IMG/VR virus record: IMGVR_UViG_3300037424_000222
Span: 1-55,598 of that record
Length of the DNA: 55,598 nt
Direction: 5' to 3' (one strand)
Source: a virus
Taxonomy: Duplodnaviria; Caudoviricetes
Within the stretch, counting starts at the first letter, position 1. Every line of letters starts with the position of its first letter. Both the position numbers and the translations under genes were made by a program. The notes under the pieces were generated by a model, which saw only the letters and a program-made list of their open reading frames with translations, was not told where the DNA came from and did not search any database. Positions 1 to 54,600 of the stretch are shown piece after piece.

Positions 1-126
1 CCCAGGTGTATGGGAATGCTCGGGTGTGTGGGAATGCTCAGGTGTATGGGAGTACTCAGGTGTATGGGGATGCTCAGGTGTATGGGGATGCTTGGGTGTA
101 TGGGAATGCTCGGGTGTATGAGGATG
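1..126. repeat. Terminal overlap identical to 55473-55598 (circular assembly join)
   Basis: Bases 1-126 match the last 126 bases, and the reading frame of the repeat gene is preserved across the join. The join lies in a tandem repeat, so copy number is uncertain. Confidence 0.85.
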
Positions 127-357
127 CCCAGGTGTATGGGAATACTCAGGTGTATGGGAATACTCAGGTGTATGAGGATGCTCAGGTGTATGGGAATGCT
201 CGGGTGTGTGGGGATGCTCAGGTGTATGGGGATGCTTGGGTGTATGAGGATGCTTGGGTGTATGGGGATGCTCAGGTGTATGGGAATGCTCGGGTGTGTG
301 GGGATGCTCAGGTGTATGGGAATGCTCGGGTGTGTGGGAATGCTCAGGTGTATGAGA
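1..357 (+). repeat. 18-bp coding tandem repeat, consensus GTGTATGGGAATGCTCAG
   Basis: Contiguous 18-nt units visible directly. Confidence 0.95.
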
Positions 358-413
358 ATAAAGACAGTAAACCATATACGCACATACTAGGCTCTCTTTG
401 GAGAGAGGTATGA
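1..413 (+). CDS. C-terminal part of hexapeptide-repeat (left-handed beta-helix-like) protein starting at 54614
   Basis: V[YC][GE][NDS][AT][QRW] repeats, in frame with 54614-55598 across the join. Confidence 0.8.
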   Translation, partial: QVYGNARVCGNAQVYGSTQVYGDAQVYGDAWVYGNARVYEDAQVYGNTQVYGNTQVYEDAQVYGNARVCGDAQVYGDAWVYEDAWVYGDAQVYGNARVCGDAQVYGNARVCGNAQVYENKDSKPYTHILGSLWREV

Positions 414-688
414 TACCAATAGGAAAGATAAGGGACGGACTGCGTGTTAAGGTTGATCCAACTGCATTCAGGAGTAATGCGTATAAAGAGCGTGTCTTAC
501 GGATACACCCCAGCCTGTTCACGGCTACTTTCAAAGTAAAGAGGGGTCGGGTTGGGGAGATATTCTTGGAGGGGTTAGGTTCTTTTGAGTTTGAGTATTA
601 TCTTCTCAACTATGTAGAGGGAATACAGCAATTCCTATCCAGAGAGTCAGCTAGTGGTGCGTGGAGGGTTGCTGAGAAAGGAAAGTAA
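410..688 (+). CDS. Hypothetical protein
   Basis: ATG at 410 after GAGG, overlapping the upstream stop (ATGA). Confidence 0.6.
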   Translation: MIPIGKIRDGLRVKVDPTAFRSNAYKERVLRIHPSLFTATFKVKRGRVGEIFLEGLGSFEFEYYLLNYVEGIQQFLSRESASGAWRVAEKGK

Positions 689-740
689 GTAGGTAAGGTA
701 TGTAGTTATTGTTGGTTGCACCAAGAGAACCTATAAGGGT

Positions 741-770
741 ATTATACCATTCTTTTCTTTCTATTGTCAA
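741..770 (-). promoter_or_regulatory. Sigma70-type promoter, antisense to the surrounding genes
   Basis: Minus strand reads TTGACA-N18-TATAAT with an extended TG. Confidence 0.7.
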
Positions 771-785
771 GGTTAATCGTACATG

Positions 786-801
786 TAATTAAAATTAATT
801 A
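786..801. repeat. TAATTA-N4-TAATTA box
   Basis: TAATTAAAATTAATTA; related copies at 4024, 9565, 15076, 20361, 52351 and 54556. Confidence 0.8.
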
Positions 802-822
802 GGAAAACAAAAGGAGAACACC

Positions 823-984
823 TTGCAAAAGAATAAGAAGCACAACTTCACCGTACTTTTCCGTGGGATCAACGGTATCACTGAGGTTTCCTCTCATTCC
901 TCCTTTATCTCAGCACAGAGAGAGGTAGCAGGGATCAATCTTGTGCAAGTTAATAGTGAAGGTTGCAGGTATTCGCATGAGTAA
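823..984 (+). CDS. Small hypothetical protein (53 aa, TTG start)
   Basis: AGGAG RBS upstream; stop overlaps the start of the next gene. Confidence 0.45.
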   Translation: MQKNKKHNFTVLFRGINGITEVSSHSSFISAQREVAGINLVQVNSEGCRYSHE

Positions 985-1219
985 TGCAAAGGTATCATAT
1001 ACCTATGTAGTTCGTGAGTGTTTACAGGATCAACTGTGGACTAACTCTATGAGTGAGTATGTGAATGATGGTAAGGTGTATACTATTACTGCTTCTCCAG
1101 GACGTGGGTTGTACTTGTGTGAGGCGGGTTTTTACTTCCCAAAGGAAGCACTCAGGTTTCTAAGTAAGGCCGAGGAGTTTGCCTACCTCAACGGTGGGCT
1201 GAGGGTGGTGAAGGTATGA
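977..1219 (+). CDS. Small hypothetical protein
   Basis: ATG 977 within ORF 941-1219; coupled to the next gene. Confidence 0.6.
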   Translation: MSNAKVSYTYVVRECLQDQLWTNSMSEYVNDGKVYTITASPGRGLYLCEAGFYFPKEALRFLSKAEEFAYLNGGLRVVKV

Positions 1220-1446
1220 AAAAGAAAATGATGTATGTGGGGTATACGGGCCGTAATAATCGGTTTGCTATACATGGTAGGGTTTATGAAGTTAGTACTA
1301 CTGAGTCACCCAGCCACGTGTTTATTAAGGAGATGAGATACTTCGTATTTAAGGATGATTTTGAGGTTCTCTCTGCTCCTGAGGTTATGCTGCATAAAGC
1401 CAGGATGCGTAGTGAAACCTGTGGTAACTGGAAGGTACAAAAGTAG
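1216..1446 (+). CDS. Small hypothetical protein
   Basis: ATGA overlap with the previous gene. Confidence 0.6.
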   Translation: MKKKMMYVGYTGRNNRFAIHGRVYEVSTTESPSHVFIKEMRYFVFKDDFEVLSAPEVMLHKARMRSETCGNWKVQK

Positions 1447-1474
1447 TTAAATAAAAACAGAGGAGTACACGTAA

Positions 1475-2242
1475 ATGGCAAAGGTATATATCTACCCCTA
1501 CAAAATGAGTAGCACCTCCGCAACACTTCTTGCATCTGCATTGAGGACAAAGAAGGTGTATCCTGACCGTAACTTTGATCCCCGTGGTAATAAAATTATT
1601 ATCAACTGGGGTTCTTCTCTTACTCCTAACTGGAATCAGGATAATATCTTGAATCATTCCCGCAATGTAGCTATTGCAAGTAATAAGTTGAGCGCATTTC
1701 AGGCACTCCGGGATAATAATAATATCCTCACCCCACCCTGGACTACTGAGAGGTGTGAGGCTAAGGGGATGCTCATGTATGGTGGGCTTCTATATGTCCG
1801 AACACTCCTATGTGCCTCAGGTGGTAATGGTATTGAGGTTATTACTGATAGGAATGCGGAAGTTCCCTCTGCCCCCCTCTATACAGGAGGGATAAAGTGT
1901 AAACGGGAGTACCGTGTCCATGTATTCAGGGGCAACGTGATAGATGTTGTTGCTAAGGTGAAGCCTGATGGTGGGGATACGGTTGTAAATGATTATATCC
2001 GTAACCATACCCGTGGTTACATCTTCGCCAGGGCTTCTGTCCGTATCCCCGATGAAGTACGTCAAGAGTTGCATGATTTGGCAATACGATCCATCAATGC
2101 ACTTGACCTTGACTTTGGGGCTGTTGATATTATTCGTGGTCTGGATAATTCTCTCTCAGTTCTTGAGGTGAATACTGCACCTGGGATTACCGGGAATACC
2201 TTGGAGGCATATGTAACTGCGATTACTGCACTATCCAACTAA
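1475..2242 (+). CDS. ATP-grasp peptide ligase (RimK-like, phiEco32/PaP3 type)
   Basis: IINWG, NKL, EYRVHV, IRNH..G, LDFGAVDI and LEVNTAPG motifs. Confidence 0.9.
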   Translation: MAKVYIYPYKMSSTSATLLASALRTKKVYPDRNFDPRGNKIIINWGSSLTPNWNQDNILNHSRNVAIASNKLSAFQALRDNNNILTPPWTTERCEAKGMLMYGGLLYVRTLLCASGGNGIEVITDRNAEVPSAPLYTGGIKCKREYRVHVFRGNVIDVVAKVKPDGGDTVVNDYIRNHTRGYIFARASVRIPDEVRQELHDLAIRSINALDLDFGAVDIIRGLDNSLSVLEVNTAPGITGNTLEAYVTAITALSN

Positions 2243-2297
2243 CCCTTGCTTAAATTCATCTATCTTTGAACAATAAAAAAAACAAAGGAATACTACA

Positions 2298-3950
2298 ATG
2301 AACTGTGTTAATTGCTCGGCTGTGCTTTCCCAGGATGATTCCCAGGATACTCTCATCGGAACCAATGAAAGTTCTTATGGCCCCTGCTGTAATACCTGCT
2401 GGGGTTTTGCAAGAATCTGTGATAATTGTTCTTCTATCTTTTCCTCTGATGCTTCCGGCATCATTGCTGGTGAACATGGACACCTCTGCCAAACCTGTGC
2501 CGAATCTGTGTCCTCCTGTTCTTGTTGTGGTCGTATCACAGATGAGGGTTCCCTTATTGACCTCGGTTCCTCAGGTAAGGTATGTCAATCCTGCAAAGAC
2601 TCAAAATACTTTCTTTGCCCCTCATGCAATACTTACCATAAGAAGATGGACTCCATCGAGAATGATAAGGTCATGCAGCTTAGGTTTCCCGGACTATGGA
2701 AAGCATACAAGGCAGGAAGACCCATTGGAAATCATTCTTGTATTCCTTGCTTCCTCTCTCTTAGAACTACGCATAAGGAGTACCGTGTATTCACCTGTAA
2801 GCGGTGCGGGGAACACAGTAACCACGTAATGGAAATGGTGGATGATGATGGTTCTCCTCTTGATTACTGCCATAAATGTGAGAGTCACGTATTCAAGTGT
2901 AAGGTATGCTCATCCTACCATACGGAGGGAAGTAGCGTAGCCTCTGTTGGTGGTAAGGTGTGTCAGGTTTGTATGAGGAACTTCTCCTACTGTCCGAGTT
3001 GTGGTAGTACAGTGCATAACTCACACTTTGATATGGAAGAGAACATGTGCAAGGTGTGTTTCAGTAAGGTAGTCAAGTGTCAATCCTGTGGAAGAAACAC
3101 AGTATCTACCCACACCATTGGGGGCAAGGTGGTATGTCCTGATTGCCATAGAAAAGCTGGTAAGTGTGATGTGTGTAGCTGTGTCTCTCTTAAACTGTAT
3201 ACCTATGAGAATGCTGGTGGTAAGTACTGCCGTAAGTGTGCATCCAGTCGCTTGCTTGGTCGAGCAGAGAGTTACTCCTTCAAACCTTACGCCGTTATGC
3301 ATGGAAAGAAAGCCGATCTATTTATGGGGTTTGAGAATGAAATCTCTGTGCGTAGTGGGGAGAGTATCCCTGTAAACATTGCCAAGGTACTCAACCATTA
3401 CTCTGAGGATCAGCTGTACATCAAGAGTGATAGTTCAGTATCTCATGGTTTTGAGGAGGTATCCCATCCCTTCACCTTTGATGAGTTTAAGAAGGTAAAC
3501 TGGGAGTATCTCTTCACCGCTCAGACTGTTAAGCATAACTCTTGTGGGTTTCATGTCCACCTGAATCGGTCTGCGTTTACCACTTTGCACATGTACAAGT
3601 TCATTAATTTTATTCACAACAACGAGGCGTTCATTGAGAAACTTGCTGGCCGTAAGCCGAACAACTATGCAAGAGATTTGCAGTATACTCCGAAGGAAGG
3701 GGCAAAGGTTAAACTTGGATGGGATAGATACAATAAGGTTAACCTGAATCCACTGGCAACCATTGAATTGCGGTTCTTTGCAGGGTGTGCTGATCTGTAT
3801 CACCTCATGTATCGTTTGGAGTTCTGCCATGCCTTGTATATTTTCTCCAAGAACAACAGTGAGAAGGGTATGGGGGTTGGTTCCTTTACTTCCTTTGTAC
3901 AAAAGAGTCAGAAGGACTACCCGTACCTCTCTGATTATCTCTCTGCATAA
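2298..3950 (+). CDS. Amidoligase (COOH-NH2 ligase) with long N-terminal CxxC zinc-ribbon array
   Basis: GFENE, KSDSS..GFEEVSHP, CGFHVH, RYNKVN and TIELRFF motifs; many CxxC pairs in the first ~320 aa. Confidence 0.85.
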   Translation: MNCVNCSAVLSQDDSQDTLIGTNESSYGPCCNTCWGFARICDNCSSIFSSDASGIIAGEHGHLCQTCAESVSSCSCCGRITDEGSLIDLGSSGKVCQSCKDSKYFLCPSCNTYHKKMDSIENDKVMQLRFPGLWKAYKAGRPIGNHSCIPCFLSLRTTHKEYRVFTCKRCGEHSNHVMEMVDDDGSPLDYCHKCESHVFKCKVCSSYHTEGSSVASVGGKVCQVCMRNFSYCPSCGSTVHNSHFDMEENMCKVCFSKVVKCQSCGRNTVSTHTIGGKVVCPDCHRKAGKCDVCSCVSLKLYTYENAGGKYCRKCASSRLLGRAESYSFKPYAVMHGKKADLFMGFENEISVRSGESIPVNIAKVLNHYSEDQLYIKSDSSVSHGFEEVSHPFTFDEFKKVNWEYLFTAQTVKHNSCGFHVHLNRSAFTTLHMYKFINFIHNNEAFIEKLAGRKPNNYARDLQYTPKEGAKVKLGWDRYNKVNLNPLATIELRFFAGCADLYHLMYRLEFCHALYIFSKNNSEKGMGVGSFTSFVQKSQKDYPYLSDYLSA

Positions 3951-3964
3951 GAGGTTTATCACCC

Positions 3965-4039
3965 AAGACTACGAAGTAGGCTTTGCCTCTTCTAAAGACT
4001 GCGAAGCAGGATTGTCCTACCTCTAATTAAAATTAATTA
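3965..4039 (-). repeat. Composite element: TAATTA box plus two tandem 30-bp double-hairpin units (inverted relative to the 15076 and 54556 copies)
   Basis: AAGACTACGAAGTAGGCTTTGCCT and AAGACTGCGAAGCAGGATTGTCCT, followed by TAATTAAAATTAATTA. Confidence 0.85.
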
Positions 4040-4042
4040 CCC

Positions 4043-4071
4043 TTGACATAAAGGGAAAGAGAGATTATAAT
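4043..4071 (+). promoter_or_regulatory. Sigma70-like promoter whose -10 overlaps the GATase start codon
   Basis: TTGACA-N17-TATAAT. Confidence 0.45.
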
Positions 4072-5023
4072 GTGTATTGCAATCTATAAACCCGCTGGTA
4101 AGGTACTGAGCAGAGAGTTGTTGAAGAACTGCTTTGATAATAACTCTGATGGTTGTGGTTTTTCCTATGTACAAACGGACAACGAGGGGAACAGCCACCT
4201 TAAGGCTAAGAAAACCATGTACTTTGAGGTATTCTACCGTCAGTATTTGAGGGCTACCCGATTGGAACCTACGAGTCCCTTCTTAATCCACTTCCGTATT
4301 GGTACACATGGTGTACTTAGCCGGTATAACTGTCACCCCTTTATCATCGACAAGAAGCATCACTTCATCCATAATGGTATCATCCATAAGATGCCAGCTT
4401 GTGCCAAGAAGAAGAAAAGTGATACGCAAATCTTCAATGATGTTATCCTCAAGAAGTTGGGTGAGGGTTGGTTCTACAACGAGGCTATCCTTGCCCTTAT
4501 TGAGGATTACATTGGTGCTGGTTCCAAGTTGATCTTTCTTAATGTGGATAAGGATGTGGTAATCTGCAATATGAAAGCAGGGGTATGGGAGGATGATGTG
4601 TGGTTCTCAAACTCCTCTTACAAAGAGCGTAAGGTGTATAATAACTACAGCAAGAGTAGCTACTACAACACCCATTCATGGAAGAAGGAAGAGAAAGAAG
4701 AGAAGAAGTTGCTGCCCTTTGTTAAAGAGAAGAAGGAAACTGTAGGGCAAAAGGTTGTGAACTTTGCTACGGATACCTTGGGGTATGGCCGTTCTCTTAC
4801 ATTATTTCCTGAGGATGAGCATGATGAGGTTGACCAGCAGTTTCTTGATAGCCTCGAGGAGAGTAAGGCTATTGAGAGAGACTCAACCTGTTTTGTGTGT
4901 GGCATTGTTGATATTACTGGTGGTATCCACAACGTACCCCTGGATGGTTACTTCACCCCTATGTGTGCAGCCTGTGAGAATACCTACAATAAGCATGGTA
5001 TGGCTGGATTGACGGAGCAATAG
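4070..5023 (+). CDS. Class II (Ntn) glutamine amidotransferase
   Basis: N-terminal MC nucleophile, N.DG.G, HFRIGTHG, NCHPF, HNG and SDT motifs. Confidence 0.9.
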   Translation: MCIAIYKPAGKVLSRELLKNCFDNNSDGCGFSYVQTDNEGNSHLKAKKTMYFEVFYRQYLRATRLEPTSPFLIHFRIGTHGVLSRYNCHPFIIDKKHHFIHNGIIHKMPACAKKKKSDTQIFNDVILKKLGEGWFYNEAILALIEDYIGAGSKLIFLNVDKDVVICNMKAGVWEDDVWFSNSSYKERKVYNNYSKSSYYNTHSWKKEEKEEKKLLPFVKEKKETVGQKVVNFATDTLGYGRSLTLFPEDEHDEVDQQFLDSLEESKAIERDSTCFVCGIVDITGGIHNVPLDGYFTPMCAACENTYNKHGMAGLTEQ

Positions 5024-6916: not shown

Positions 6917-8617
6917 ATGAGTAAGGTAAAGTATACGATTGTGGGTGATGAGGGGTGTCCATCATGCCAATCTATTGGTAAAGATTCCTCTGGTAATCAC
7001 CTCATTGTTTTTAGTAATGGGGGTAAACATTGCAACAGGTGTAAGTATACTGTGCTACCTTCGGGGGATACGAAGGGTGGGTACTTGGCACCAACTAAGG
7101 GTGAAGGTTCTACGGGATTAACCCTTGCTCTAGACTCCCATATCACTGATCATAAGGAGAGCATGGAGGATACCAACTCCCTCCCCACAGGTCTTGAGAT
7201 ATTGGAGAGGGGTATTAGTAAGGATACAACTGCATTTTATGGGGTACGCTTTGGGCTTTCGCAAAGTGATGGGAGTACAATCACTGAACACTACTACCCC
7301 TACTACCTTGCAGAGGATACCAATAAACTTACGGGGTATAAGAAGAGGCTGCTACCAAAGAAGTTCTACTCAGTTGGTATGCTAAAGGTTCCTGTTACTT
7401 TCTTTGGTCAGCAAAAGTTTAGTGGTGGTGGTAAGAAGCTACTGATTACTGGTGGTGAGTTGGATACGCTGGCTGGATACCAGATGCTTAAGAAGAAGTA
7501 TCCTCAATCATTTCCACAGGTTGTATCTCTCCCAAAAGGGGAGGCATCTATTAGCGCATTTAAGGACAACATTGACTTCATACAGAGTTATGAGGAAGTA
7601 ATTGTAGCAACTGATATGGATGATGCTGGTAGAAAGATGGCAAAGGATATTGCCTCCCTCCTTGGACGTAAGGCACTACTTATGTCCTTCTCTGAGAAAG
7701 ATGCATCCGATATGTTGAAGTATGGAAAGGAGGAGGAGTTTATCTCAGCCTTCTACTCGGCTAGACCATACCGACCTGAGTGTGTTGTCACGGTTGATGA
7801 TGTGTATGAGGAGGCTATTAAGATGCCTGAGTGGGGTCTATCCTACCCTTGGCCCTCCCTTACACAGCTAACCTATGGTATCCGTGAGAAGGAGTGTATC
7901 TACCTAGGTGCTGGTGTTGGTATTGGTAAGACAGACTGGGCCTTACAGCTACAGGAACACATCATCAACCACCACAAGCAGGTACCTGGGCTATTCATGC
8001 TGGAACAGCCTGTAGCTCGAACACTGAAAACACTGGCTGGTAAGTTTGCCGGTATCCCGTTTCATAAGCCGGATGCTATCTTCACACACGACCAGCTTAA
8101 GGAGGGGATTGACCGGCTTCGTGGGAAGGTACTACTGTATAACCACTTTGGTACAAAGGATTGGGAAACCGTAAAACAAGCTATCCGTATTATGGTTATG
8201 GATGATGGGGTTAAGCAAATTTTTATTGATCCCCTCACAGCCCTTGTATCCCACCTCAGTAGTAGTGAGGCCAATGATGAGTTGAATAAGATAGCGGGAG
8301 AGTTAGCGAGTATGGCGCATGAGCTATCTTTCACCGTCTTTGGCTTTTCACACCTTAACCCACCAAAGACCAGCAAGCCACATGAGAGGGGTGGTAAGGT
8401 GCATGAGTCCCAGTTCACAGGTTCCCGTGGGCTTATGCGGTATGGTCATTACCTCTTCGGAATTGAGAGAGACAAAGACCCCGAACTGGATGAGGATGTA
8501 AGAAATACTAGTAACTTTGTCCTCCTAAAGGACAGAGAGTTTGGTAATGTAGGAAACTTCGAGATTTTTTATAATAAGAATAATACCACTTTTCTAGAAC
8601 CACTAATGGGGAAATAA
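6917..8617 (+). CDS. T7 gp4-like DNA primase-helicase
   Basis: Zn ribbon CPSC..CNRC; TOPRIM GGELD and DMDDAG; Walker A GAGVGIGKT; IFIDPL; SHL; GSRG; LKDR. Confidence 0.95.
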   Translation: MSKVKYTIVGDEGCPSCQSIGKDSSGNHLIVFSNGGKHCNRCKYTVLPSGDTKGGYLAPTKGEGSTGLTLALDSHITDHKESMEDTNSLPTGLEILERGISKDTTAFYGVRFGLSQSDGSTITEHYYPYYLAEDTNKLTGYKKRLLPKKFYSVGMLKVPVTFFGQQKFSGGGKKLLITGGELDTLAGYQMLKKKYPQSFPQVVSLPKGEASISAFKDNIDFIQSYEEVIVATDMDDAGRKMAKDIASLLGRKALLMSFSEKDASDMLKYGKEEEFISAFYSARPYRPECVVTVDDVYEEAIKMPEWGLSYPWPSLTQLTYGIREKECIYLGAGVGIGKTDWALQLQEHIINHHKQVPGLFMLEQPVARTLKTLAGKFAGIPFHKPDAIFTHDQLKEGIDRLRGKVLLYNHFGTKDWETVKQAIRIMVMDDGVKQIFIDPLTALVSHLSSSEANDELNKIAGELASMAHELSFTVFGFSHLNPPKTSKPHERGGKVHESQFTGSRGLMRYGHYLFGIERDKDPELDEDVRNTSNFVLLKDREFGNVGNFEIFYNKNNTTFLEPLMGK

Positions 8618-9441: not shown

Positions 9442-10223
9442 AACTTATCTCCGATACTGAGAGTGATGGTTTTAAGTATGAGGCAACAAGGCTCTGGTGT
9501 ATAGTCTCCTTTGATCCAGATGCCAAGTGGTGGTATATAAGTTCCCCAGAGGATATGCGTAACCTAATTAAAATTAATTACCCCCACTTACACCACGATT
9601 ATATCTCCTTCACGGATCATATAGCTTTACTGGGGGATGCTGAGAAGTTGGTTATGCACAATGGTATCATGCATGATGCCCCACTAATTAAGAAGCTGTA
9701 TGGTAAGAATCTAAGTAATATTGAGGACACCTTCATCATGTCCTCCCTATTTAACCCAGATAGGATGAGTCCTAAGGGGTGGGTGGGTCAACCAAAACCT
9801 CACAGCATAGCTGCATATGCACACAGATTTGGGATGGTAAAGGTGGGACATGAGGACTGGTCTTGCTTCTCCTGGAATATGCTGGATAGGTGTATCAATG
9901 ATGTGATGGTTGGGTATAAGACGCATGAGTATTTGCTAAAGGAGGCTGCTCAATGGGATTGGAAATTGTCCCTGAAACTAGAGCATGCTGTTGCTCATCT
10001 CCAAGCTGAACAAGAGATGCATGGTGTGCTCTTTGATAAGGAGCGTGCAATCATCCTACGGGATCAGATTGATAAGGAACTTGAGATGATAGAGGCCAAT
10101 GTGCTAGATAACATACCTAAGAGAGTCAAACAAGTAGGGGTGACAATCACTAAGCCATTCCTAAAGGATGGTTCATATAGTAAGAGTGTGCTTGAATGGA
10201 TAGGGGGGGATAGGCATGAATAA
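9438..10223 (+). CDS. polA: Family A DNA polymerase part 1 (3'-5' exonuclease and start of thumb)
   Basis: ExoI SDTESD, ExoII HNGIMHD, ExoIII RCINDV, QEMHGVLFD, KPFLKDG. Confidence 0.9.
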   Translation: MKLISDTESDGFKYEATRLWCIVSFDPDAKWWYISSPEDMRNLIKINYPHLHHDYISFTDHIALLGDAEKLVMHNGIMHDAPLIKKLYGKNLSNIEDTFIMSSLFNPDRMSPKGWVGQPKPHSIAAYAHRFGMVKVGHEDWSCFSWNMLDRCINDVMVGYKTHEYLLKEAAQWDWKLSLKLEHAVAHLQAEQEMHGVLFDKERAIILRDQIDKELEMIEANVLDNIPKRVKQVGVTITKPFLKDGSYSKSVLEWIGGDRHE

Positions 10224-11701: not shown

Positions 11702-11920
11702 ATGAGTATAACTATGAAACCATGCCCATTCTGTGGTGAAAGTAACAGCATTATCTGTTCGACAGAGTTTATCCCTGAAAATAGACTGGCACATGCTGTG
11801 AGTTGCAGAACAAGGGGCTGCAATGGAGCGGTTTATTCTTTAGCACTTGGCTTATTTGAAACAGAGGAGGAGGCAGTATCAGCGTGGAATACCCGTTATA
11901 AGGAGAAACAAAACCCTTGA
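11702..11920 (+). CDS. Lar-family restriction alleviation-like zinc protein
   Basis: KPCPFCG ... C..C ... EEEAVSAWNTR. Confidence 0.75.
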   Translation: MSITMKPCPFCGESNSIICSTEFIPENRLAHAVSCRTRGCNGAVYSLALGLFETEEEAVSAWNTRYKEKQNP

Positions 11921-11961
11921 CAACCACAGGGTTCACATGGTATAATACAATTAGTAGGTTT
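11917..11961 (+). promoter_or_regulatory. Sigma70-type promoter with conserved downstream element
   Basis: TTGACA-N18-TATAAT, then ACAATTAGTAGGTTT. Confidence 0.8.
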
Positions 11962-14814: not shown

Positions 14815-15000
14815 TATAGATGAGATGGTAGCCGTATGGCCCGATGGGTTTCTGTGTTACCTAGATGATATCGAAGACTACCCTACGAGGGGAGATGATT
14901 ATGAGGTTATTCCTTTCCATGAGTTGGATGAGGATCAGCAGGATGAGTTAATCTAGGTTGTGGGTGATATGAGAGTTGAGTCTGGTGTGGTAAAACTTGT

Positions 15001-15074
15001 AGGGGTATAGTGTAGTGGTAACACACAGGGCTATGATCCTGTATCTCTGGTTCAAATCCAGATACCCCCACCCA
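15001..15074 (+). tRNA. Atypical or degenerate tRNA (Gln-like body, loop CT-ATG-A, anticodon arm one base short)
   Basis: Acceptor GGGGTA/TACCCC; D arm GTGT/ACAC; T arm TCTGG-TTCAAAT-CCAGA. Confidence 0.65.
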
Positions 15075-15075: not shown

Positions 15076-15120
15076 CAATTAAAATTAATTAGAAGAAGGC
15101 AAAGCCTACTTCATAGTCTT
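15076..15120 (+). repeat. Composite element: TAATTA box plus double-hairpin unit
   Basis: CAATTAAAATTAATTAGAAGAAGGCAAAGCCTACTTCATAGTCTT; 29/30 identical to 54571-54600. Confidence 0.85.
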
Positions 15121-20219: not shown

Positions 20220-21971
20220 ATGAATGAGCTTCAAAAATATATTTTTCTTAGCAAGTATGCCCGTTGGCGAGAAGAGGATAAACGCCGAGAGACCTGGGAA
20301 GAGACAGTAGATCGGTATATCACCTTCATATCTAATCGAGTACCAACTGAGCATCATGGCCAATTAATTTTAATTAGGGAGGAGATGATGAAGCTAGGGG
20401 TTGTCCCTAGTATGCGTGCTCTTATGACAGCAGGGGAGGCTGGTACCCGCGATCAAGCTTCACTTTACAACTGTTCCTACGTAGCTGTTGATAACCCCCG
20501 AGTATTTGATGAGATATTCTACTTGCTTATGTGTGGGTCAGGCGTCGGCTTCTCAGTGGAGCGGCAGTTTGTAACTGGTAGTGCAAAGATGATTGAGGTT
20601 GCTGATAACTTCTTTGAGAGTGACACAACGATTGTAGTAGCAGATAGCAAGATTGGTTGGGCATCTGCTCTACGGGAACTTATCTCCCTCCTATACATCG
20701 GTAAGGTACCTAAGTGGGACTTGAGTAAGATCAGGCCAGCGGGGGCTAGGTTGAAGGTGTTTGGTGGTCGTGCCTCTGGACCAGCACCACTAGATGCGCT
20801 CTTTAAGTATGTAGTTACCTTATTCCGGTCAGCCTCAGGCAGGAAGTTGAATAGTATCGAATGCCATGATTTGATTTGTAAGATTGCAAATACGGTTATC
20901 GTTGGTTCTGTTCGTAGATCAGCGTGTATATCTTTCAGCAATCTGACAGACCAACGAATGGCTAAGAGTAAGGCTGGTAGTTGGTGGATTGAGAATCCCG
21001 AGAGAGCACTGGCTAACAACAGTGTTATGTTCACAGAGAAACCAGACTTGGCCTCCTTCACTAAAGAGATGCACAATCTATATGAGAGTAAGTGTGGGGA
21101 GCGTGGGATTGTAAACCAGAAGGCATTGAAGTTAAAGGCTGTTGAGTGTGGGAGAGACCCTGAGATACACTATGGTCTTAACCCTTGCTTGATAGGCTCT
21201 TCTGTAATACACACCGTTGGCGGTCCTATGATGTTGAAGGATATAGTTAAACCCACCAACGTATACTCAATGGGCCATGATGGTAGCCTTTGTATTAGAA
21301 AGTCCACTGCTTCTTGGGTTTCAAAGAGAGACACTGAGACAGTGGTAATCACATATAACAATGGTAAGTCTATCACTGTTACTCCTGACCACAAAATCTA
21401 TGTACTTGGTGCAACTAAGGGTAAGACAAGGGGAATCCACTCTTGGGTAGAAGCTAAGGATTTGAAGGTTGGTGATAGGCTTAATGCACTCTCAAGAACT
21501 CGTAGGGGTGCTGGGTATGTGGGGATTAAGTTGTCTACGGATACTGACTATCGTATGGAACATAGGCTGGTGTATGAGGGCATGAATGGCCCCATCCCAC
21601 ATGGCCACGATATTCACCACATGGATGATGATGGTTACCACAACTCTATAGGGAACCTGGAGTTAATCTCACACAGCAAACACTCCTCACTTACTCGGTA
21701 TACCCGAAGCAATGACCACATGGTCTGGGATTCAGTAACTGGTAAGTTTCTTAACCAGGGGGGTACTAAGAAAAAGGTTATCATTCCCTTCCCCTTGGAG
21801 TGGAAGCTAGGTATCAAGGGTGGTAGTCTTTGTGTAGCATCTGTAACACCTGGGCCTGTAGTTGATGTGTATGATATGTCAGTTGAGGATACTCACAATT
21901 TTGTAGCTGATGGTATTATTGTGCATAACTGTGCAGAGGCTATCCTTCGCAGTAGTGGCTTGTGCAACCTT
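20220..21971 (+). CDS. nrdJ: Class II (B12-dependent) ribonucleotide reductase, exon 1 (contains the intein)
   Basis: SKYARW..RRETW.E, PSMR, YNC, G.GVGFS, FGG.ASGP.PL, VRRSA, ANNS, NP[intein]CAE...CNL. Confidence 0.92.
21186..21929 (+). mobile_element. Intein (248 aa) with HNH endonuclease at the RNR NP/CxE catalytic cysteine
   Basis: N-terminal CLIGSS, block B TPDH, VYDMSV..THNF, C-terminal VHN/C; internal HRLVY...IHH.D....N...NL. Confidence 0.92.
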
Positions 21972-22744
21972 TAATACACCGGAGGTTGTAAAACTAGGAG
22001 AATTGCTGGAACACCCTAACGGATAAGACGAGGGCAATCAGCAGCCGAGCCTGTAGTAAATACAGGAAGGTTCAACGACCAGAGAGAAATCTCGTACACC
22101 CAAGTGGGTGGAAGCACCTAGCTCCGTAGTAAACGGATGATGATATGGTCTAAGCTGCATAGAAATATGCAGATGGGTATTGACAAACCTGTATTTGTAT
22201 GTTATACTATATGTAACAATGGTAAGTTACATGGAACTTAACTACTAATCACTGGAGATGTCAATGAGGAAGAATTTATCTGGTTATCTTGAGTCTGATA
22301 CACACAGAGAGTGTACAAAGTGTGGGGTTATCTTTGAAAAGACCAGCAAGATGACGCTATGTAAGCAATGTAACAGCACAAGGGTTAAGAGTATGAGGCC
22401 GGAGTGGAGGATGCACCAACGAGCAAGGTCTCGGTGCAGAAAGTCTGGTATGGAGTTTGGTATTACCGTAAGTGACTTGGTTATACCAGATGTGTGTCCA
22501 GCCCTAGGGATTCATATGAATATGAACTCAGGTAGACCAGGGGCATACGATAACTCCCCGTCTCTTGACAGGATGGATAGCACGCGTGGATATACCAAGG
22601 ATAATATCCATGTTATATCCCAGGCAGCCAACAGAATGAAAGGCAATGCTACCAGGGAACAGTTGCTGTTATTTGCTAAGTGGATAAATGACACATTCCA
22701 AGAAGTCCCTGCTGTGGTGCAACGAGCCACAGTGAATACAACTG
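21972..22744 (+). mobile_element. Group I self-splicing intron in nrdJ
   Basis: P1 TGCAACCTT/GAGGTTGTA with a U.G pair at 21971; P GAATTGCTGGAA; Q AATCAGCAG; R GTTCAACGACCAGA; S GATATGGTCT; terminal G at 22744. Splicing restores CNL-SESIIRP in frame. Confidence 0.92.
22180..22208 (+). promoter_or_regulatory. Intron-internal promoter for the homing endonuclease
   Basis: TTGACA-N17-TATACT with an extended TG. Confidence 0.7.
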
Positions 22745-22749
22745 AGTGA
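22258..22749 (+). CDS. Intron-encoded HNH-type homing endonuclease
   Basis: CTKC..CKQC; IPDVCPALG; SPSLDR.D...GYTKDN...IS..AN.MK. Confidence 0.85.
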   Translation: MSMRKNLSGYLESDTHRECTKCGVIFEKTSKMTLCKQCNSTRVKSMRPEWRMHQRARSRCRKSGMEFGITVSDLVIPDVCPALGIHMNMNSGRPGAYDNSPSLDRMDSTRGYTKDNIHVISQAANRMKGNATREQLLLFAKWINDTFQEVPAVVQRATVNTTE

Positions 22750-23662
22750 ATCTATTATACGCCCTACAGACACCTTGGAGGATATTAAACGAAAGGTTAC
22801 CTTTGCTACTATCCTTGGTACAATCCAATCCACTTATACTGACTTTAGATACCTCCGTAAGATATGGAAGGACAACGCAGAGGAGGAGAGGTTACTAGGT
22901 GTCTCACTGACTGGCATATGTGATCATCCTATTATGAGCGGTAAGGAGGTTGATTGTGCTGGTGAGATGTATAATTTCTGTGGGTATGAGGGTGCCTCTT
23001 TAAAGGGCATCCTTATAGAGTTGAGGAACACAGCAAAGGATACTAACAGAGAGTGGGCAGCTATCCTGGGTATTAATGAGAGTAAGCAGATTGGCTTAGT
23101 TAAGCCCTCTGGTACTGTCTCCCAGTTAGCAGATTGCTCCTCTGGGATACACCCACGGTATAGTAAGTATTACATCCGAAGGGTTACACAGGATAATAAA
23201 GACCCACTTACACAGCTTATGATTGATCAAGGTATCCCCTATGTACTCACTGGGGATAAAACAATCTTCTCTTTCTACTGTAAGGCTCCAGATACCACTG
23301 TTATGCAGAAGGATATGGATGCTATTCAACAGCTAGAACTTTGGAGTACATATCAGAAACATTGGTGTGATGGTAACCCCTCACAATCAATCTACTATCA
23401 GGATGATAACTTTCTTGACGTATGCTCATGGGTATGGAAGAATTGGGACTCTGTTGGTGGTCTCTCCTTCTTTCCATATAATGATCACTGTTATGATAAT
23501 GCACCTTATGAGGCACTCACACCTGAGGAGTATGCTAATAAGGTATTTAACTTCCCTGTCTCAGTTGAGTGGGGTAAGTTAGGAGGGTATGAAACTGAGG
23601 ACTGTACTGTATCATCTCAAACTATGGCTTGCTCTGGTTCTGGGGGGTGTGATATTCTTTAA
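22745..23662 (+). CDS. nrdJ: Class II ribonucleotide reductase, exon 2
   Basis: EERLLGVSLTG, VKPSGTVSQL..SSGIH, YIRR, APYE, C-terminal ACSGSGGC. Confidence 0.92.
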   Translation, partial: SESIIRPTDTLEDIKRKVTFATILGTIQSTYTDFRYLRKIWKDNAEEERLLGVSLTGICDHPIMSGKEVDCAGEMYNFCGYEGASLKGILIELRNTAKDTNREWAAILGINESKQIGLVKPSGTVSQLADCSSGIHPRYSKYYIRRVTQDNKDPLTQLMIDQGIPYVLTGDKTIFSFYCKAPDTTVMQKDMDAIQQLELWSTYQKHWCDGNPSQSIYYQDDNFLDVCSWVWKNWDSVGGLSFFPYNDHCYDNAPYEALTPEEYANKVFNFPVSVEWGKLGGYETEDCTVSSQTMACSGSGGCDIL

Positions 23663-37487: not shown

Positions 37488-40465
37488 TATGATTTTGCCT
37501 CCACTTTGAGCATTCTTCTTACGCCACTGCTCGTAAGTGTTCCACTACTGCCCTGATTCATCTTTGACTCTATTTTATGCAGCCCGACACTGGTCGAAAC
37601 TTCTTGAGGCAGTAAGAGTGGACCACCAGTATTGGTCAACGCGGTGTAGTCAACGGCATATGAGCCAACAGCACCATCTAGCCACGAGGACAAGCCAACA
37701 ACATTACCAGCAGCTTGGGATGACAGCAGGGTTGTTTGATGCGTGGCACTTATCTCACTACCTATTACATAAGCCTCCATTTCAGGGATTAACACAGAAG
37801 TAGAACCAGAAGCTGAGGTTGGCGCTGATGTTACCCCCCTCCTCACTTCCTTCTGCACAACCCCCTCACCCATACAGTTCTTCTCCACCCCGCACAGTTG
37901 CTTGACAGATACTGGAGAACCGGCATTCCACAGAGGAGCGAAGAGGTCGGATTTATCTCCAGACCAATGTGCGAACTCTGAGCAGGTTCCGGTGGTGGCG
38001 ATGGGGAGGAGCATTCCGCCTTGGTAGTATTTGATGTATGACCAGATGGCATCTGCGTTTTCACCTGCAACACCGGTTAGGTCTCCAATATTAATGGTGT
38101 TAGCGGTATTGGCCGTAAGCAATTTTCCAGTACCATCAATAGCTAACACACCATCGATTAACAGATAGTAATTGCTACCTTGTCCACAGAGTATAAAGAT
38201 ATGATCCTGAGTCTTGAAATCGCCTTGAACAGTAAAGTCAGTGGAACTGGTCCCATTACCTGTGGATACGAAATATTCCTGAATGCGTAAGGTGATTCGC
38301 TTCGCCCCATCAAATACATCAATCACGCATCCTGCCCCCGCTGCGCTATTGGTATTAGATAAACACCTCAATTTTGCTGAAACCGCCCAACCTGTTGTAT
38401 TATTGAGCACAACTGTCTTTTGATATATACCATCATCTGTACTCGCATAGCCATTCGCGTTCTGATAGAGCTTCCCGCCTATGACGCTAATGGCGTTGGC
38501 TTCGGTGGCTGTACCTGTCCAAGTCCACCCCTGAGCACTAGGCAGACTCGTCATCTGCATGTCCTGAGTCCAGGTGGGGATTATCCCAAATCCATCCCCA
38601 AGCCTTGCAGTACCAAGCTCACGGAAGTTCTTATCCACGGTGAAGGTCTGGGCGGTCAAGGGAGTACCAACAGATACACCATCGACGTAGAGGGTGGCGT
38701 AGTCTGCTCCATCACCTACCGTGCGAACCTTGAAGCTCACATCGTGATTGCCAGAAGCTACTGAGCCAGTGCCGGTCACTTGGGCAAGGGTACGATCAGA
38801 CTCATAGATGGAGAGAACTGGATAACCAGAAGCATTGGTGGTCAGAGTGATCCTGTCGTGATCTAACCCAAACAAGAAGTCAGCTACGTTACTACTTACG
38901 GCATAGGTTCCCCTGTGGATGAAGGAAAACTCCTTTCCGTCGAAGAAATTGGCGAGAGGCTGCGCCACGGAACGTGATTGATTCCAAGGATTGCCGGGGT
39001 TGAAGGCCAGTTTGTAGTCGAACATCCCACCAGGTTGAAGGAGGGAGTTGGCGGCGGGGTTTTGGAGAAACGAGCAAAGGGTCGCGGTAGTGGTAGCTGT
39101 CCATGCGGGGGTAGCATCACCAGCATTTGCATACCCATGCGGATATTTGCTAGACCCCGTTGCCTTTATCACATAGTAGTTTGACGCATCTACGGCACCA
39201 CTGCGCGAGAACACTTCATGGTATTGAGTTCCTGCTGTCAATGAGGCTGTCGTCCCACCTATATAGTATAACTCCCCATCCGTCTTAGATGTAATCTGTT
39301 TGCCTGGAAGTGTGAGGGCTGTGAAAAGATTTGCCCCTGTTGGTGCGCCTGCGCTATTCGCCCGCATTGACCAAGTTAGATTATCGGTAGGATTCCCTAC
39401 CTTATAAACTTTCACCCACGTTCCTGGTGGGGTCATCGTTTCACTAACAACCCTCCCGGCAGATTGATATGTTCTCGCCGCAGCATCACCCAATACTCTG
39501 GTCGTATCATCCTGAATATTGCCCGTGGCCACACTGCCGAGACTTCCGTCCGGCAACCCACCCCATTGCGGTCCACCCCATTGCTGGTTGTAGCAAGAAG
39601 GTAGCCACCCTGCGCGGTACTTGTCGCGGAAACCGCCGTCGAGGGTTGGATGGTAGAGGTGGGTGAGGGAGTTAGGGTTGTATGCAGCAATATTACCAGC
39701 ACCGAGTATGGTAGTACCATTCACCGTCTTAATGTCAGTCCCAGATTCAGCAGCACCAACAACACCTGATGTACCCTTAAGGATACCAGAGGTAGTTGCT
39801 GCCTTAGCAAGCTTCCCGGTTGTACCATCAAAGAGCACTAGCTGGCTATCTACAGCAGACACAGGCCCTACAATAGCTGAATCAGCTAGGCTGGTCCACA
39901 CGGTTCCAGAGTATACCCGTAGTTCTGGTATAGCTGTATTCCAGTATAAGGCCCCAGTAAGTAGGGCAGCACCATCATTATCAAGAGTTGGGTCAGCAGC
40001 CTTAGCACCAAGGTACCTATCATCAAAGTTATCATAGGATGCAGCAGCAGCAGAAGCCGAAGCAGCAGCAGAGATAACATCAGCATTAGTAGCAACTTTA
40101 TCTAATCCAGTGGATACAACATCTGCATTTGTTGCAATCTTATCAATGGCAGTTGCTGCTGCATCTGCATGAGTAAGTACAACATCGGCATGGGTGAGTA
40201 CTACGTCTGCATGAGTAAGTACTACGTCAGCATGAGTAAGTACTACGTCAGCATGAGTAAGTACTACGTCAGCATGAGTAAGTACTACGTCAGCATCAGC
40301 ATCTGAGATAAGGGCAGCTGTATCAGAAACTATGGTCTGTAAAATCTGATCCCCAAGATCAAATGCAGTCTCCACAGCAACACTAAGATTATTCAAATCA
40401 GATGCTTTAGCTATATCACCATCATAGACTGTCAATGGTGCTGCTGTAAAATAAGGGTTAGCCAT
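37487..40465 (-). CDS. Tail fibre / receptor-binding protein
   Basis: Heptad repeats, FDDRYLGAK..DPTLDNDG..L..GALYWN motif, DIKTVNG..ILG.GNI, lectin-like C-terminal domains. Confidence 0.8.
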   Translation of the reverse strand: MANPYFTAAPLTVYDGDIAKASDLNNLSVAVETAFDLGDQILQTIVSDTAALISDADADVVLTHADVVLTHADVVLTHADVVLTHADVVLTHADVVLTHADAAATAIDKIATNADVVSTGLDKVATNADVISAAASASAAAASYDNFDDRYLGAKAADPTLDNDGAALLTGALYWNTAIPELRVYSGTVWTSLADSAIVGPVSAVDSQLVLFDGTTGKLAKAATTSGILKGTSGVVGAAESGTDIKTVNGTTILGAGNIAAYNPNSLTHLYHPTLDGGFRDKYRAGWLPSCYNQQWGGPQWGGLPDGSLGSVATGNIQDDTTRVLGDAAARTYQSAGRVVSETMTPPGTWVKVYKVGNPTDNLTWSMRANSAGAPTGANLFTALTLPGKQITSKTDGELYYIGGTTASLTAGTQYHEVFSRSGAVDASNYYVIKATGSSKYPHGYANAGDATPAWTATTTATLCSFLQNPAANSLLQPGGMFDYKLAFNPGNPWNQSRSVAQPLANFFDGKEFSFIHRGTYAVSSNVADFLFGLDHDRITLTTNASGYPVLSIYESDRTLAQVTGTGSVASGNHDVSFKVRTVGDGADYATLYVDGVSVGTPLTAQTFTVDKNFRELGTARLGDGFGIIPTWTQDMQMTSLPSAQGWTWTGTATEANAISVIGGKLYQNANGYASTDDGIYQKTVVLNNTTGWAVSAKLRCLSNTNSAAGAGCVIDVFDGAKRITLRIQEYFVSTGNGTSSTDFTVQGDFKTQDHIFILCGQGSNYYLLIDGVLAIDGTGKLLTANTANTINIGDLTGVAGENADAIWSYIKYYQGGMLLPIATTGTCSEFAHWSGDKSDLFAPLWNAGSPVSVKQLCGVEKNCMGEGVVQKEVRRGVTSAPTSASGSTSVLIPEMEAYVIGSEISATHQTTLLSSQAAGNVVGLSSWLDGAVGSYAVDYTALTNTGGPLLLPQEVSTSVGLHKIESKMNQGSSGTLTSSGVRRMLKVEAKS
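40169..40294 (-). repeat. Six 21-bp tandem repeats encoding ADVVLTH
   Basis: Four identical and two synonymous-variant copies. Confidence 0.9.
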
Positions 40466-51813: not shown

Positions 51814-52195
51814 CCTACTAAGTATTAGCAAGGAATACCTATGTTAATAGTTTACATAGTTATTATATACTATTGATTGATTATCTTAAGAGTAGTAAGA
51901 AACACCTCGCGTATACTGAGATACTCTATGTATACCTTACTAAACCTCCTAACTGTATTATACCATTTTATTTTTATCTTGTCAAGTAGAAAAACACAAA
52001 AATATAAAACTATTTTTGCTTTCCCAGTGTTTCTAGATACTTACAAGTAGCCTTTTTATCAGCTCAAAGTAGGCTAAATATCGACTGTATTGGGTACATA
52101 TTGGGTAGAAGTACCCAACGATTGTAGGTACATATTGGGTATATCTGGCCTATATCTTGGGTATATCTTCCCTTTCCTTGCTAATACTCCGTAGG
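51814..52195. repeat. Inverted repeat pair (15 bp perfect, 20/22 extended) flanking the late promoter
   Basis: AGTATTAGCAAGGAA at 51821-51835, with its reverse complement at 52174-52188. Confidence 0.8.
51942..51985 (-). promoter_or_regulatory. Sigma70-type promoter for the structural arm, with conserved downstream element
   Basis: TTGACA-N17-TATAAT, then ACAGTTAGGAGGTTT. Confidence 0.8.
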
Positions 52196-52500
52196 AAGGA
52201 ACCTTAGGGGGAGTAAGGGTTGTGGGGATGGTGTTGGTACCACTGTTTTCAAATTGTGTTCATAGGGAGACGGGGGGTAACCCCCACCAACCCCCGGATA
52301 CCCATCCCAAAAGAGGGTGCTACCCCCCTCAAACACCCCCCACCGGGGTCTAATTAGCTTTAATTAGGAAAATCCTAGGAATACCCTGGAAACCCTCTGG
52401 AATCCGTGGGTTGTGGGAGTAGGGTTTGCGGGTAGGGGGTGAACCTACGGAGGGCGTTTTTAGGGTAAGAAGAGTAGTAAAAGGTTCGGTGGGGATACCC
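52087..52500. other. Non-coding divergence region, candidate genome termini or origin
   Basis: TTGGGTA short repeats, G and C tracts, a TAATTA box, and the switch of coding strand. Confidence 0.5.
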
Positions 52501-52828
52501 TGGCATACACCAGCACCCCACTACCAACCTTGACCAGTCTGCCAGTTATCCCGGTGCTAGGGATCATTCGGGTCGAATCGTTCTCTCACATAGACCTTGG
52601 AAACGTAAGTCAACCGGACAATTTCTTGTCCCTTGCGTTTTCATGGTGGCCCATAGGGGGCAGAAGTATACCATACTTGCCGACTGGTGTCCCTTGACAC
52701 AGGGATATAACAACGGTGACACATGGGGGAGATTATACCGCCGAGTTAATCTCTGGATTCCACCCATGCAAACGCGACGTACCAGGGTTAGGCGAAAGAT
52801 GCAGATTGCTCTGTAAGCTATGGTGTTC

Positions 52829-52882
52829 TTTGGTAGGGTAGTGCTGTACTGCCCCTGACGAGTCCATAAGGACGAAACCAAA
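52829..52882 (+). ncRNA. Type III hammerhead ribozyme
   Basis: Stem III TTTGGT/ACCAAA, GUA site, stem I GGGTAGT/ACTGCCC, core CTGACGA, stem II GTCC/GGAC, GAAA. Confidence 0.9.
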
Positions 52883-52900
52883 AATGAATGAGGTGTTATC

Positions 52901-53488: not shown

Positions 53489-53533
53489 ATCACGATTCTT
53501 TCAGAATCCTGCTAAGTATACCAGGGATTGAGA

Positions 53534-53567
53534 GTAGGGAGCGGCTGTATTGCTCCCTATTTTCTTT
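53534..53567 (+). terminator. Intrinsic terminator
   Basis: TAGGGAGC/GCTCCCTA stem followed by TTTTCTTT. Confidence 0.75.
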
Positions 53568-53770: not shown

Positions 53771-53857
53771 ATGAAACTCTATTATAAGTGTAAGCTGGAG
53801 AAGAAATGTACAGGGGGGACCTGTAATTACACCCCCAAACACCAATCAGGAGACAAT

Positions 53858-54410: not shown

Positions 54411-54572
54411 ATGAAAGATACTGAAATGTATAATAAACACATTGCCAATCCGGGTGGATGGACACTTTTCCACATGATGGGGGATGCGAAGAGGGGGAGT
54501 CCTTGTGGTGCATACAGCCTCCGGTTTGCCCGTTTCTTTTCCAAGCATCGTACCCTAATTAGTTTTAATTAG
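54411..54572 (+). CDS. Small hypothetical protein
   Basis: AAGGAG RBS. Confidence 0.45.
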   Translation: MKDTEMYNKHIANPGGWTLFHMMGDAKRGSPCGAYSLRFARFFSKHRTLISFN

Positions 54573-54600
54573 AAGAAGGCAAAGCCTACTTCGTAGTCTT
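54556..54600 (+). repeat. Composite element: TAATTA box plus double-hairpin unit
   Basis: TAATTAGTTTTAATTAGAAGAAGGCAAAGCCTACTTCGTAGTCTT, directly before an AGGAG RBS. Confidence 0.85.

Follow-up and report, generated by a model that had tools for sequence, protein, structure and literature searches.

The closest described counterparts of the element reported here are the promoter-early stem-loops (PeSLs) of T4-type phages, composite promoter-terminator cassettes that mediate modular shuffling (PMC2839356; PMC4122927). Each is a small conserved intergenic composite in which an AT-rich stretch and a stem-loop are joined to a Shine-Dalgarno sequence and its start codon. They carry a strong sigma70-like early promoter (-35/-10) whose upstream region is AT-rich, and a stable stem-loop that works as a terminator or attenuator. 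They lie between non-essential early genes, where close relatives differ by insertions, deletions or replacements (PMC2839356). A second counterpart is the SAS/ESAS family of Cluster K mycobacteriophages, which PMC3203893 defines by an asymmetric 13-mer containing AGGAG (Shine-Dalgarno), 3-7 bp from the start. These short repeats are confined to the non-structural half of the genome, just upstream of starts and sometimes including the upstream stop codon; about half have a second, inverted-repeat part, and they are conserved next to unrelated genes, with a role that is not established in the same text (PMC3203893). The stoperators of mycobacteriophage L5 and Cluster A are also mentioned there (PMC3203893).

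The window analysed here is the complete 55,598-bp virus record IMGVR_UViG_3300037424_000222 (positions 1 to 55,598, terminal repeats present), which is podovirus-like in its gene content and has replication genes of the T7 type. The sediment and soil samples behind runs X1 and X2 are among those rich in this phage. Searches against PHROGs and Pfam identify a T7-type primase-helicase (6917-8617), a split family A DNA polymerase, a gp2.5-like single-strand binding protein and an exonuclease, and nucleotide-metabolism genes and a trio of ATP-grasp, amidoligase and amidotransferase genes are also encoded. The + strand genes extend from ~52,900 across the window end to ~24,600, and the structural genes occupy the - strand from 51,732 down to 24,935. 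GC skew tracks gene direction and does not locate an origin in the window. In the primase-helicase, identity to the nearest cultured phages is about 40-47%; a phage database queried with 20 kb by megablast had nothing to match, and distant blastn of 5.1 kb matched only the tRNA.

The element is built around a 16-bp box, TAATTA-N4-TAATTA, whose two half-sites are one helical turn (10 bp) apart, and which is adjoined at three intergenic loci by ~30-nt units, four in total (Table 1; G001, G002 and G003 are related records, described below). The preliminary description of this DNA had taken the box for an AT-rich melting or binding site coupled to the hairpins; by the counts the box behaves as a distinct site and is a separate motif. 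It occurs in seven copies (≤1 mismatch), against 0.32 expected and 0/100 shuffles that reached seven, and the unit is absent at four of the seven (786, 9565, 20361 and 52351). All seven lie from 52351 through the window end to 20376, in the non-structural half, with none in the 27-kb structural block.

Table 1. Positions of the boxes, units and adjoining signals in the window
Feature	Position	Strand	Remarks
Box, locus 3	54556..54571	no strand	With unit; 42 nt before ATG 54614; kept in G003
Box, locus 2	15076..15091	no strand	First half-site CAATTA; with unit; ~42 nt before start; identical in G001
Box, locus 1	4024..4039	no strand	Two inverted units; 30 nt upstream of ATG 4070
Box without unit	786..801	no strand	21 nt upstream of TTG start 823
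Box without unit	52351..52366	no strand	Head of + strand early block; ~535-nt leader to first early gene
Box without unit	9565..9580	no strand	Within DNA polymerase ORF; no start nearby
Box without unit	20361..20376	no strand	Within ribonucleotide reductase ORF, 8 nt upstream of in-frame GGGAGGAG-ATG; kept in G001
Unit Ua, locus 3	54572..54600	+	Hairpin 54572-54592 (4+4 bp around A.A mismatch), then tail GTAGTCTT
Unit Ub, locus 2	15092..15120	+	Hairpin as in Ua; G to A at position 22
Unit Uc (variant), locus 1	3995..4023	-	Full 9-bp stem GAGGTAGGA-CAA-TCCTGCTTC on - strand, two G.T pairs
Unit Ud, locus 1	3965..3992	-	24-nt core identical to Ua (24/24); 5' arm one base shorter
Consensus sigma70 promoter, 12/12	4043..4071	+	-10 overlaps ATG of glutamine-amidotransferase-like gene (N-terminus MCIAIY)
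Second hairpin CCCTT-GACATA-AAGGG	4040..4055	+	Begins at first base on other side of box 4024

In its composite make-up and its placement the element resembles the PeSLs, most closely at locus 1, where stem-loops and the AT-rich box are followed by a 12/12 sigma70 promoter. However, loci 2 and 3 have no sigma70 -35/-10 (no site ≥9/12), the stem-loop carries neither a U-tract nor polyG/polyC, lies downstream of the AT-rich part and is absent from a terminator scan, and the genome that carries it is podovirus-like with T7-type replication and not that of a T4-type myovirus; moreover, the present case comprises only four units and seven boxes. The likeness to SAS/ESAS is also one of location, but the box is AT-rich, symmetric and 8-42 nt upstream of starts, and the substitutions described below preserve pairing, whereas the authors of PMC3203893 report little support for RNA hairpins in the ESAS. 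The element thus behaves like PeSLs and SAS/ESAS but fails the defining sequence features of each, and is a member of neither.

Tentatively, we favour a reading in which transcription is started or controlled at the box, as a site specific to the phage, and the unit is a leader hairpin ending in a ribosome-binding site, the two together making a portable gene-start cassette. The box would then be the phage's own signal for early and middle gene modules, acting either as a promoter core or as a site at which a phage or host factor docks and thereby allows RNA polymerase to initiate. The unit would be a transcribed leader whose first 21 bases fold into a hairpin from the first base after the box, thereby placing a protective stem-loop at or beside the mRNA 5' end, with the tail leading into the Shine-Dalgarno sequence. 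In other words, we infer a start of transcription at the box, an action of the hairpin in RNA and a protein that reads the box. A similar layout is found in 5'-terminal stabiliser stem-loops (ompA leader, T7 late leaders), which have few or no unpaired 5' bases and are followed by a Shine-Dalgarno sequence; the present case has the stem-loop at a putative mRNA 5' end and the same order, and differs in that the locus 1 copy is antisense to the genes.

Scanning with a 24-mer unit core returned 3965-3988 (-), 54577-54600 (+) and 15097-15120 (+, one mismatch), with no match in 100 shuffles, and a looser pattern added the variant unit at 3995-4018 (-), giving six matches, four of them units, against 0.95 expected. 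The two others are 15084-15107 (-), which overlaps Ub, and one at 53256 in coding sequence. This last stretch (53256-53279), in a conserved early protein-coding gene, has 15 consecutive bases in common with the variant unit and was left out of the unit count; since the homologous G003 codons differ at three of these bases, it represents chance or micro-conversion and no unit. The scans confirm the four units at three loci, each abutting a box, that had been described before, and the letters quoted at the time (CTAC-GAA-GTAG, CTGC-GAA-GCAG, CTAT-GAA-GTAG, AGGC-TTT-GCCT and AGGA-TTG-TCCT) are all present as written. The earlier statement that the element occurs in both orientations relative to transcription also holds: at loci 2 and 3 the order is box, unit and gene on the + strand, whereas locus 1 is inverted between two + strand genes. 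The polarity of the unit relative to its adjacent box is constant at all loci. Ua is followed by the Shine-Dalgarno sequence AGGAG (54601-54605) and the ATG at 54614, Ub precedes a 46-aa ORF starting at ~15134, and the conserved unit tail, RYAGTCTT, runs into the Shine-Dalgarno sequence.

Two families of ready explanations for such repeats were tried and set aside. An intrinsic terminator has a G+C-rich stem with a T-run behind it; the units are not listed in the terminator scan, and what comes after their stem is GTAGTCTT when read one way and TAATTA when read the other. The genuine terminators of this phage look different. REP/BIME and MITE elements are dispersed in many copies, MITEs having terminal inverted repeats and target duplications and REPs an associated RAYT transposase; the units number only four, with no flanking inverted repeats or duplications seen and no Rfam match. 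A correspondence to a terminator, REP or MITE family, which the preliminary description had named as a finding that would speak against it, was not found in these searches, and Rfam has no family matching the units.

To determine which pairing is selected, we compared the predicted folds of the units and the effect of their substitutions. Minimum-energy folds with RNA and DNA parameters agree on one hairpin, GAAG.AGGC-AAA-GCCT.CTTC, which begins at the first base after the box; this start at the box edge is seen in Ua, Ub, Uc and the G003 unit, with up to 9 bp. As RNA, the hairpin has -9 to -12 kcal/mol, and with DNA parameters the folds beat shuffles (z -1.7 to -3.2). When the 29 positions of Ua and Uc are compared, seven are different; five of the seven belong to the long stem, where all changes keep or add pairs (C-G to A-T, A.A to T.G and A-T to G.T). 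Random substitutions reach ≥9 pairs with P 0.0037, and the P for the CTRC/GYAG mini-hairpin alone is about 0.16. In the G003 unit the AGGC/GCCT mini-hairpin is lost, a perfect 6-bp stem, GAAGCA-ATTC-TGCTTC, stands at the same place, and CTGC-TTC-GCAG and the tail are retained. The mini-hairpin after box 52351 (52367-52375) also changes on both sides, from GGA-AAA-TCC in the window to GGG-AAAA-CCC in G003. Based on the variant-unit substitution test, the retained stem in G003 and the paired changes at 52351, the long stem is the best-supported element. That the variant and G003 units keep their stem through changed letters supports selection of the units for pairing, although the copies come from one narrow lineage (four records, to which G001 contributes only an identical Ub), so that the covariation rests on few independent events. 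The CTRC/GYAG pairing shows covariation as well (A-T to G-C) and is a competitor of the long stem, to which it may be an alternative state, so that the long stem is the probable fold only. The two G.T pairs of the variant unit form only on the box-to-unit strand, and since such wobbles work on one strand only, they fit a transcript or one single strand and not a symmetric cruciform.

These results bear directly on the original proposal of a structure-selected DNA signal with two overlapping mini-hairpins. The selection for pairing stands, given the pairing kept in the variant and G003 units; the overlapping pair as the selected structure is not supported, with one of its members missing from G003 and the other changed no more tellingly than the above P value indicates. 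In the mechanism suggested, the AT-rich box would melt and the unit would extrude as single-stranded C-GAA-G hairpins for a primase, a recombinase or an N4-type polymerase, which we consider very unlikely. The letters given for the mini-hairpins are correct and include one double change from A-T to G-C, the DNA-parameter folds are better than those of shuffles, and the phage encodes a primase-helicase, polymerase and single-strand binding protein of the kinds listed above; every unit contains GTC, the T7 primase recognition core. Nevertheless, stems of 4 bp are marginal, the long stem is the one favoured by the folding programs, CTRC/GYAG is weakened on the sense strand in Ub, and four of the seven window boxes have no unit to extrude. 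N4 virion RNA polymerase promoters are small hairpins with a 3-nt loop, and need a virion polymerase of ~3500 aa. The small 3-nt-loop hairpin tied here to early-region start signals is alike in this respect, but it comes after the putative start site and not upstream, most boxes lack it, and no motif, PDB or family match to such a polymerase was found. The largest ORF in the window has 1009 aa, which removes the giant virion RNA polymerase that an N4-like hairpin promoter would require. This 1009-aa protein and one of 957 aa, the two largest without assigned function, gave empty PDB sequence searches, and their nearest Atlas clusters have LPD domains; the two look like injected polyvalent proteins.

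Hairpins at the box edge are not restricted to the units. Ten non-homologous boxes, with 20 flanks in all, have such a hairpin at five flanks, where the background rate is 4.4% (P 0.0015), or at 4 of 20 when the two unit copies are counted once (P 0.010), with thresholds that were chosen after the data were seen. Box 4024 has edge hairpins on both sides, the order on its gene side being box, hairpin, Shine-Dalgarno sequence and ATG 4070, and box 52351 likewise has hairpins on both, the one before it being a GC hairpin. In the stretch after box 52351 (52367-52405) we also noted four GGAA(N)CC mini-palindromes.

The position of the boxes relative to genes was then examined at 12 sites, seven in the window, four in G003 and one in G002, the latter two records having been found by the box pattern scan, among the matches listed. 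At eight of the 12, a start codon follows after 8-42 nt on the + (gene) strand (window 786, 4024, 15076, 20361 and 54556; G003 10581 and 11838; G002 10849). Among the remaining four, a leader of ~535 nt comes after 52351 and after its G003 homologue, 9565 falls within an ORF, and the G003 homologue of locus 3 (12482) is ~150 nt before the first ORF of ≥40 aa. At 54556 the stop codon of the upstream ORF (54570-54572) overlaps the end of the box, and box 15076 is directly 3' of a tRNA gene (15000-15074). As a separate observation, a 20-nt stretch comprising box and flanks is identical at the intergenic site 4023-4042 and in the DNA polymerase ORF (9564-9583).

Several of these positions would suit an element that works at the RNA level, with the AU-rich box of a polycistronic mRNA as a single-stranded RNase E/RNase Y-type site and/or an S1-binding translational enhancer close before the Shine-Dalgarno sequence, and the hairpins protecting the new 5' end of the downstream product or the 3' end of the upstream one. 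Such an element, which we regard as unlikely, would explain the tolerance of either unit orientation, as the inverted locus 1 units would give amidoligase mRNA 3' hairpins. It would also agree with boxes 8-42 nt upstream of starts, with the overlap of the upstream stop codon at 54556 and in G002, with the box directly after the tRNA 3' end in the window and G001, and with hairpins adjoining the box on either side, or on both at 4024 and 52351. On the other hand, an RNA site does not need two exact palindromic half-sites one helical turn apart, and the tandem 10-bp TAATTA repeats with G/C runs in distant relatives look like DNA recognition. Box 52351 and the first start codon are ~535 nt apart, full pairing of the variant unit is confined to the antisense strand of locus 1, and the missing early-block promoters are left unexplained.

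The window has six consensus sigma70 promoters (11-12/12), of which four 12/12 copies with a common initial transcribed sequence belong to the operon of the single-strand binding protein, to the two structural operons and to a transcript running leftward. On the + strand, sigma70-like sites ≥9/12 are absent from 51950-55598 and occur in 1-4042 only inside the ATP-grasp-like ORF at 1475-2242, and the same early region of G003 has no site ≥10/12 between genes. The sense-oriented boxes 52351, 54556, 786 and 15076 sit where promoters would be needed. The promoter at 4043 cannot serve the start codon of the amidotransferase-like gene, since its -10 overlaps ATG 4070; box 4024, 30 nt upstream, could by its position be the signal that does.

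The four 12/12 promoters lie at 11917-11946 (+), 51985-51957 (-), 35093-35064 (-) and 770-741 (-), each with TG just before the -10 and with ATAC..TTAG.AGGTT. The promoter at 51985 is followed on the - strand by a hairpin and T-run (51815-51794), ahead of the first structural gene, which suggests control by antitermination; the promoter at 770 has no obvious gene downstream.

If the box is an early or middle transcription start, as in the cassette reading favoured here, this lineage uses a signal unlike sigma70, T7-type or N4-type promoters, and keeps its sigma70 consensus promoters for the replication and structural operons, which would amount to a two-signal timing scheme. Several points count against this reading. 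The box does not look like a sigma70 promoter, two boxes are inside essential ORFs, some implied leaders would have only 8-10 nt, and the locus 1 units point away from the genes and would head an antisense RNA without obvious product. Because the box is nearly symmetric it has no intrinsic direction, which counts against a start site, and the G next to it provides no reliable one, being present on both flanks at 52351 and 54556. No RNA polymerase or sigma factor was found among 40 ORFs scanned (PHROGs and/or Pfam), which counts against a promoter as well, and no RNA run was listed as containing the phage. Sigma70, ECF, sigma54, Bacteroidota-type and activator-dependent readings of box and unit were judged a poor fit by eye and by reasoning only, and a T7-type promoter, an asymmetric site of ~20 bp that goes with a phage-encoded polymerase, was rejected, as the box is symmetric and no single-subunit RNA polymerase gene is present among the scanned ORFs. 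A literature search for TAATTA as a phage promoter gave nothing relevant among the matches listed.

A bolder version, which we find improbable, makes the twin-TAATTA box the promoter of a system unseen by current models. An injected or early factor would redirect RNA polymerase to a symmetric 16-bp AT-rich site that lacks -35/-10, the hairpin would be part of start-site recognition or promoter escape, and locus 1 would be a bidirectional start.

Stoperators are asymmetric, orientation-dependent sites bound by a known repressor, with many copies in short intergenic gaps of the early region. The boxes are likewise many copies of one short site in such gaps, but they are symmetric and no regulator has been identified for them. 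In an operator reading the box would be bound by a dimeric or tandem-binding phage repressor or roadblock protein, and the hairpins would be incidental leader structures. We hold this to be rather unlikely, although the identical palindromic half-sites at 10-bp spacing, and the confinement of many copies to the early and middle half, are as expected for an operator. Two boxes also adjoin consensus promoters, box 4024 being 3 nt upstream of the -35 of the promoter at 4043 and box 786 being 15 nt upstream of the -35 of the leftward promoter at 770-741, and boxes inside ORFs would be tolerable for a roadblock. A possible regulator is the first early protein (52901-53488, 195 aa), whose helix-helix-helix-strand-strand order could be a winged helix in a poor AlphaFold model (pLDDT 63.7, pTM 0.44); its homologues were found only in the same lineage, and Foldseek gave nothing at E ≤0.001. 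The box geometry differs by 13 bp between the two promoters, so that the operator position would not be fixed, a promoter that could be repressed is not recognisable at most boxes, and the exact start of the hairpin at the box edge is left unexplained. Should the box be an operator or an RNA-processing site, it would add nothing unusual to what phages use in gene regulation, apart from its place in an uncultured lineage.

The preliminary description had suggested checking whether gene content varies at these sites in relatives. Relatives were sought with both patterns. The unit pattern gave one match with relatedness in the viral and metagenome collections, G001 (32 kb), and the box pattern gave at least 118 loci, mostly chance matches, from which tblastn on the 118 picked the relatives and through which the variant unit of G003 surfaced. 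Among the matches listed, L114 and L126 are clear relatives and L046, L053, L061, L038, L058 and L107 weak ones. Two matches of a degenerate unit pattern in the viral collection (L013 and L014) were rejected as unrelated high-GC contigs. In the metagenome collection the unit pattern gave 0 matches and the amidotransferase protein 0 relatives, the amidoligase protein had no match in the viral collection, and the primase relatives L006-L010 (30-40% identity) have no box and no unit.

G001 has two boxes and covers only locus 2, where box and unit are identical to the window. The tRNA upstream, Ile-TAT, differs from that of the window up to the first base of the box, after which identity is 100%. 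G003 (13.8 kb, among the matches listed) has four boxes, two homologous to 52351 and 54556 and two new ones, 10 and 16 nt upstream of start codons. A strong intrinsic terminator (-30.7 kcal/mol, z -6.65) lies 12 nt ahead of the former of these, which is 10 nt before its ATG and forms the edge of a ~1.1-kb inserted block of small ORFs absent from the window. The locus 3 cassette of G003 is a 103-nt island with 82.5% identity to the window; the gene to its left is 66% identical, and to its right three unrelated small ORFs replace the gene with an 18-bp repeat. Between these two records a 20-nt core, CTRCTTCRYAGTCTT, and the Shine-Dalgarno sequence are kept where the flanks are not. G002 (44.9 kb, complete, among the matches listed) has one box, which overlaps the upstream stop codon 24 nt before an ATG and is adjoined only by the 5' arm of the unit (GAAGTAGGA). 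Two distant records, G004 (amidoligase genes in common) and G005 (portal and capsid genes), have tandem TAATTA-containing repeats ahead of + strand genes, flanked by G/C runs; the 10-bp spacing of these repeats was read at the matched sites, both records having been found through the box pattern itself.

Gene content at the sites thus differs among relatives: the tRNA swap at locus 2, and the replaced genes and inserted block at the G003 boxes, confirm that these are indel and replacement junctions. Since the cassette is kept while its neighbours vary, it would also be a junction for gene-module exchange, and if this is true it is a second, independent example, after the T4 PeSLs, of regulatory cassettes serving as seams of genome exchange.

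The same junctions raise the question of whether the units have a function of their own or are recombination scars between box-containing junctions, copied by gene conversion. Ud is an exact copy of the Ua core and is variable in the population, as a ~92% identical relative in run X5 has ~20 nt missing across 3952-3998, which spans Ud. Only four units exist, G002 retains no more than the 5' arm, and most window boxes do without one, all of which would be in line with scars. We nonetheless find this quite improbable, since the Uc and G003 substitutions preserve pairing far beyond chance and the 20-nt core with its Shine-Dalgarno sequence is conserved where the flanks are not.

Other features of the window and its relatives were noted in passing. 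Transfer RNAs vary among the close relatives: the gene at 15000-15074, whose anticodon was not called, corresponds to tRNA-Ile(TAT) in G001 (L011 226-302), and G003 has a tRNA-Asn (L114 5973-6047) where the window has a tRNA-Met beside a tRNA-Thr. The ATP-grasp (RimK-like), amidoligase and N-terminal-Cys amidotransferase-like genes (1475-5023) recur in the 65-kb record G004 at ~28-42% identity. The late and early blocks diverge from a non-coding region of ~900 nt, which contains iteron-like repeats at 52090-52170 (GGTACATATTGGGTA twice, plus related copies) and may be an origin or a genome end. The leader before the first early gene contains a candidate type III hammerhead ribozyme at 52829-52882 (+), with all core letters and three stems readable, which scores 26.8 bits with Rfam Hammerhead_3, below the gathering score of 48.5.

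The ribonucleotide reductase gene (20220-23662) has two interruptions, an intein with an HNH endonuclease (Pfam Intein_splicing, HNH_3) and a group I intron (21899-22172, 67.8 bits), the latter having behind it a promoter of its own (22180, 11/12) and then a small zinc-ribbon ORF (22258-22749). An 18-bp tandem repeat encoding hexapeptide repeats spans both record ends (54616-55598 and 1-487) and is open on both strands; the + strand product of this gene matches phage families without known function, its non-repeat N-terminus included. A 21-bp tandem repeat in seven copies (40117-40305) lies within a 992-aa tail-fibre-like gene.
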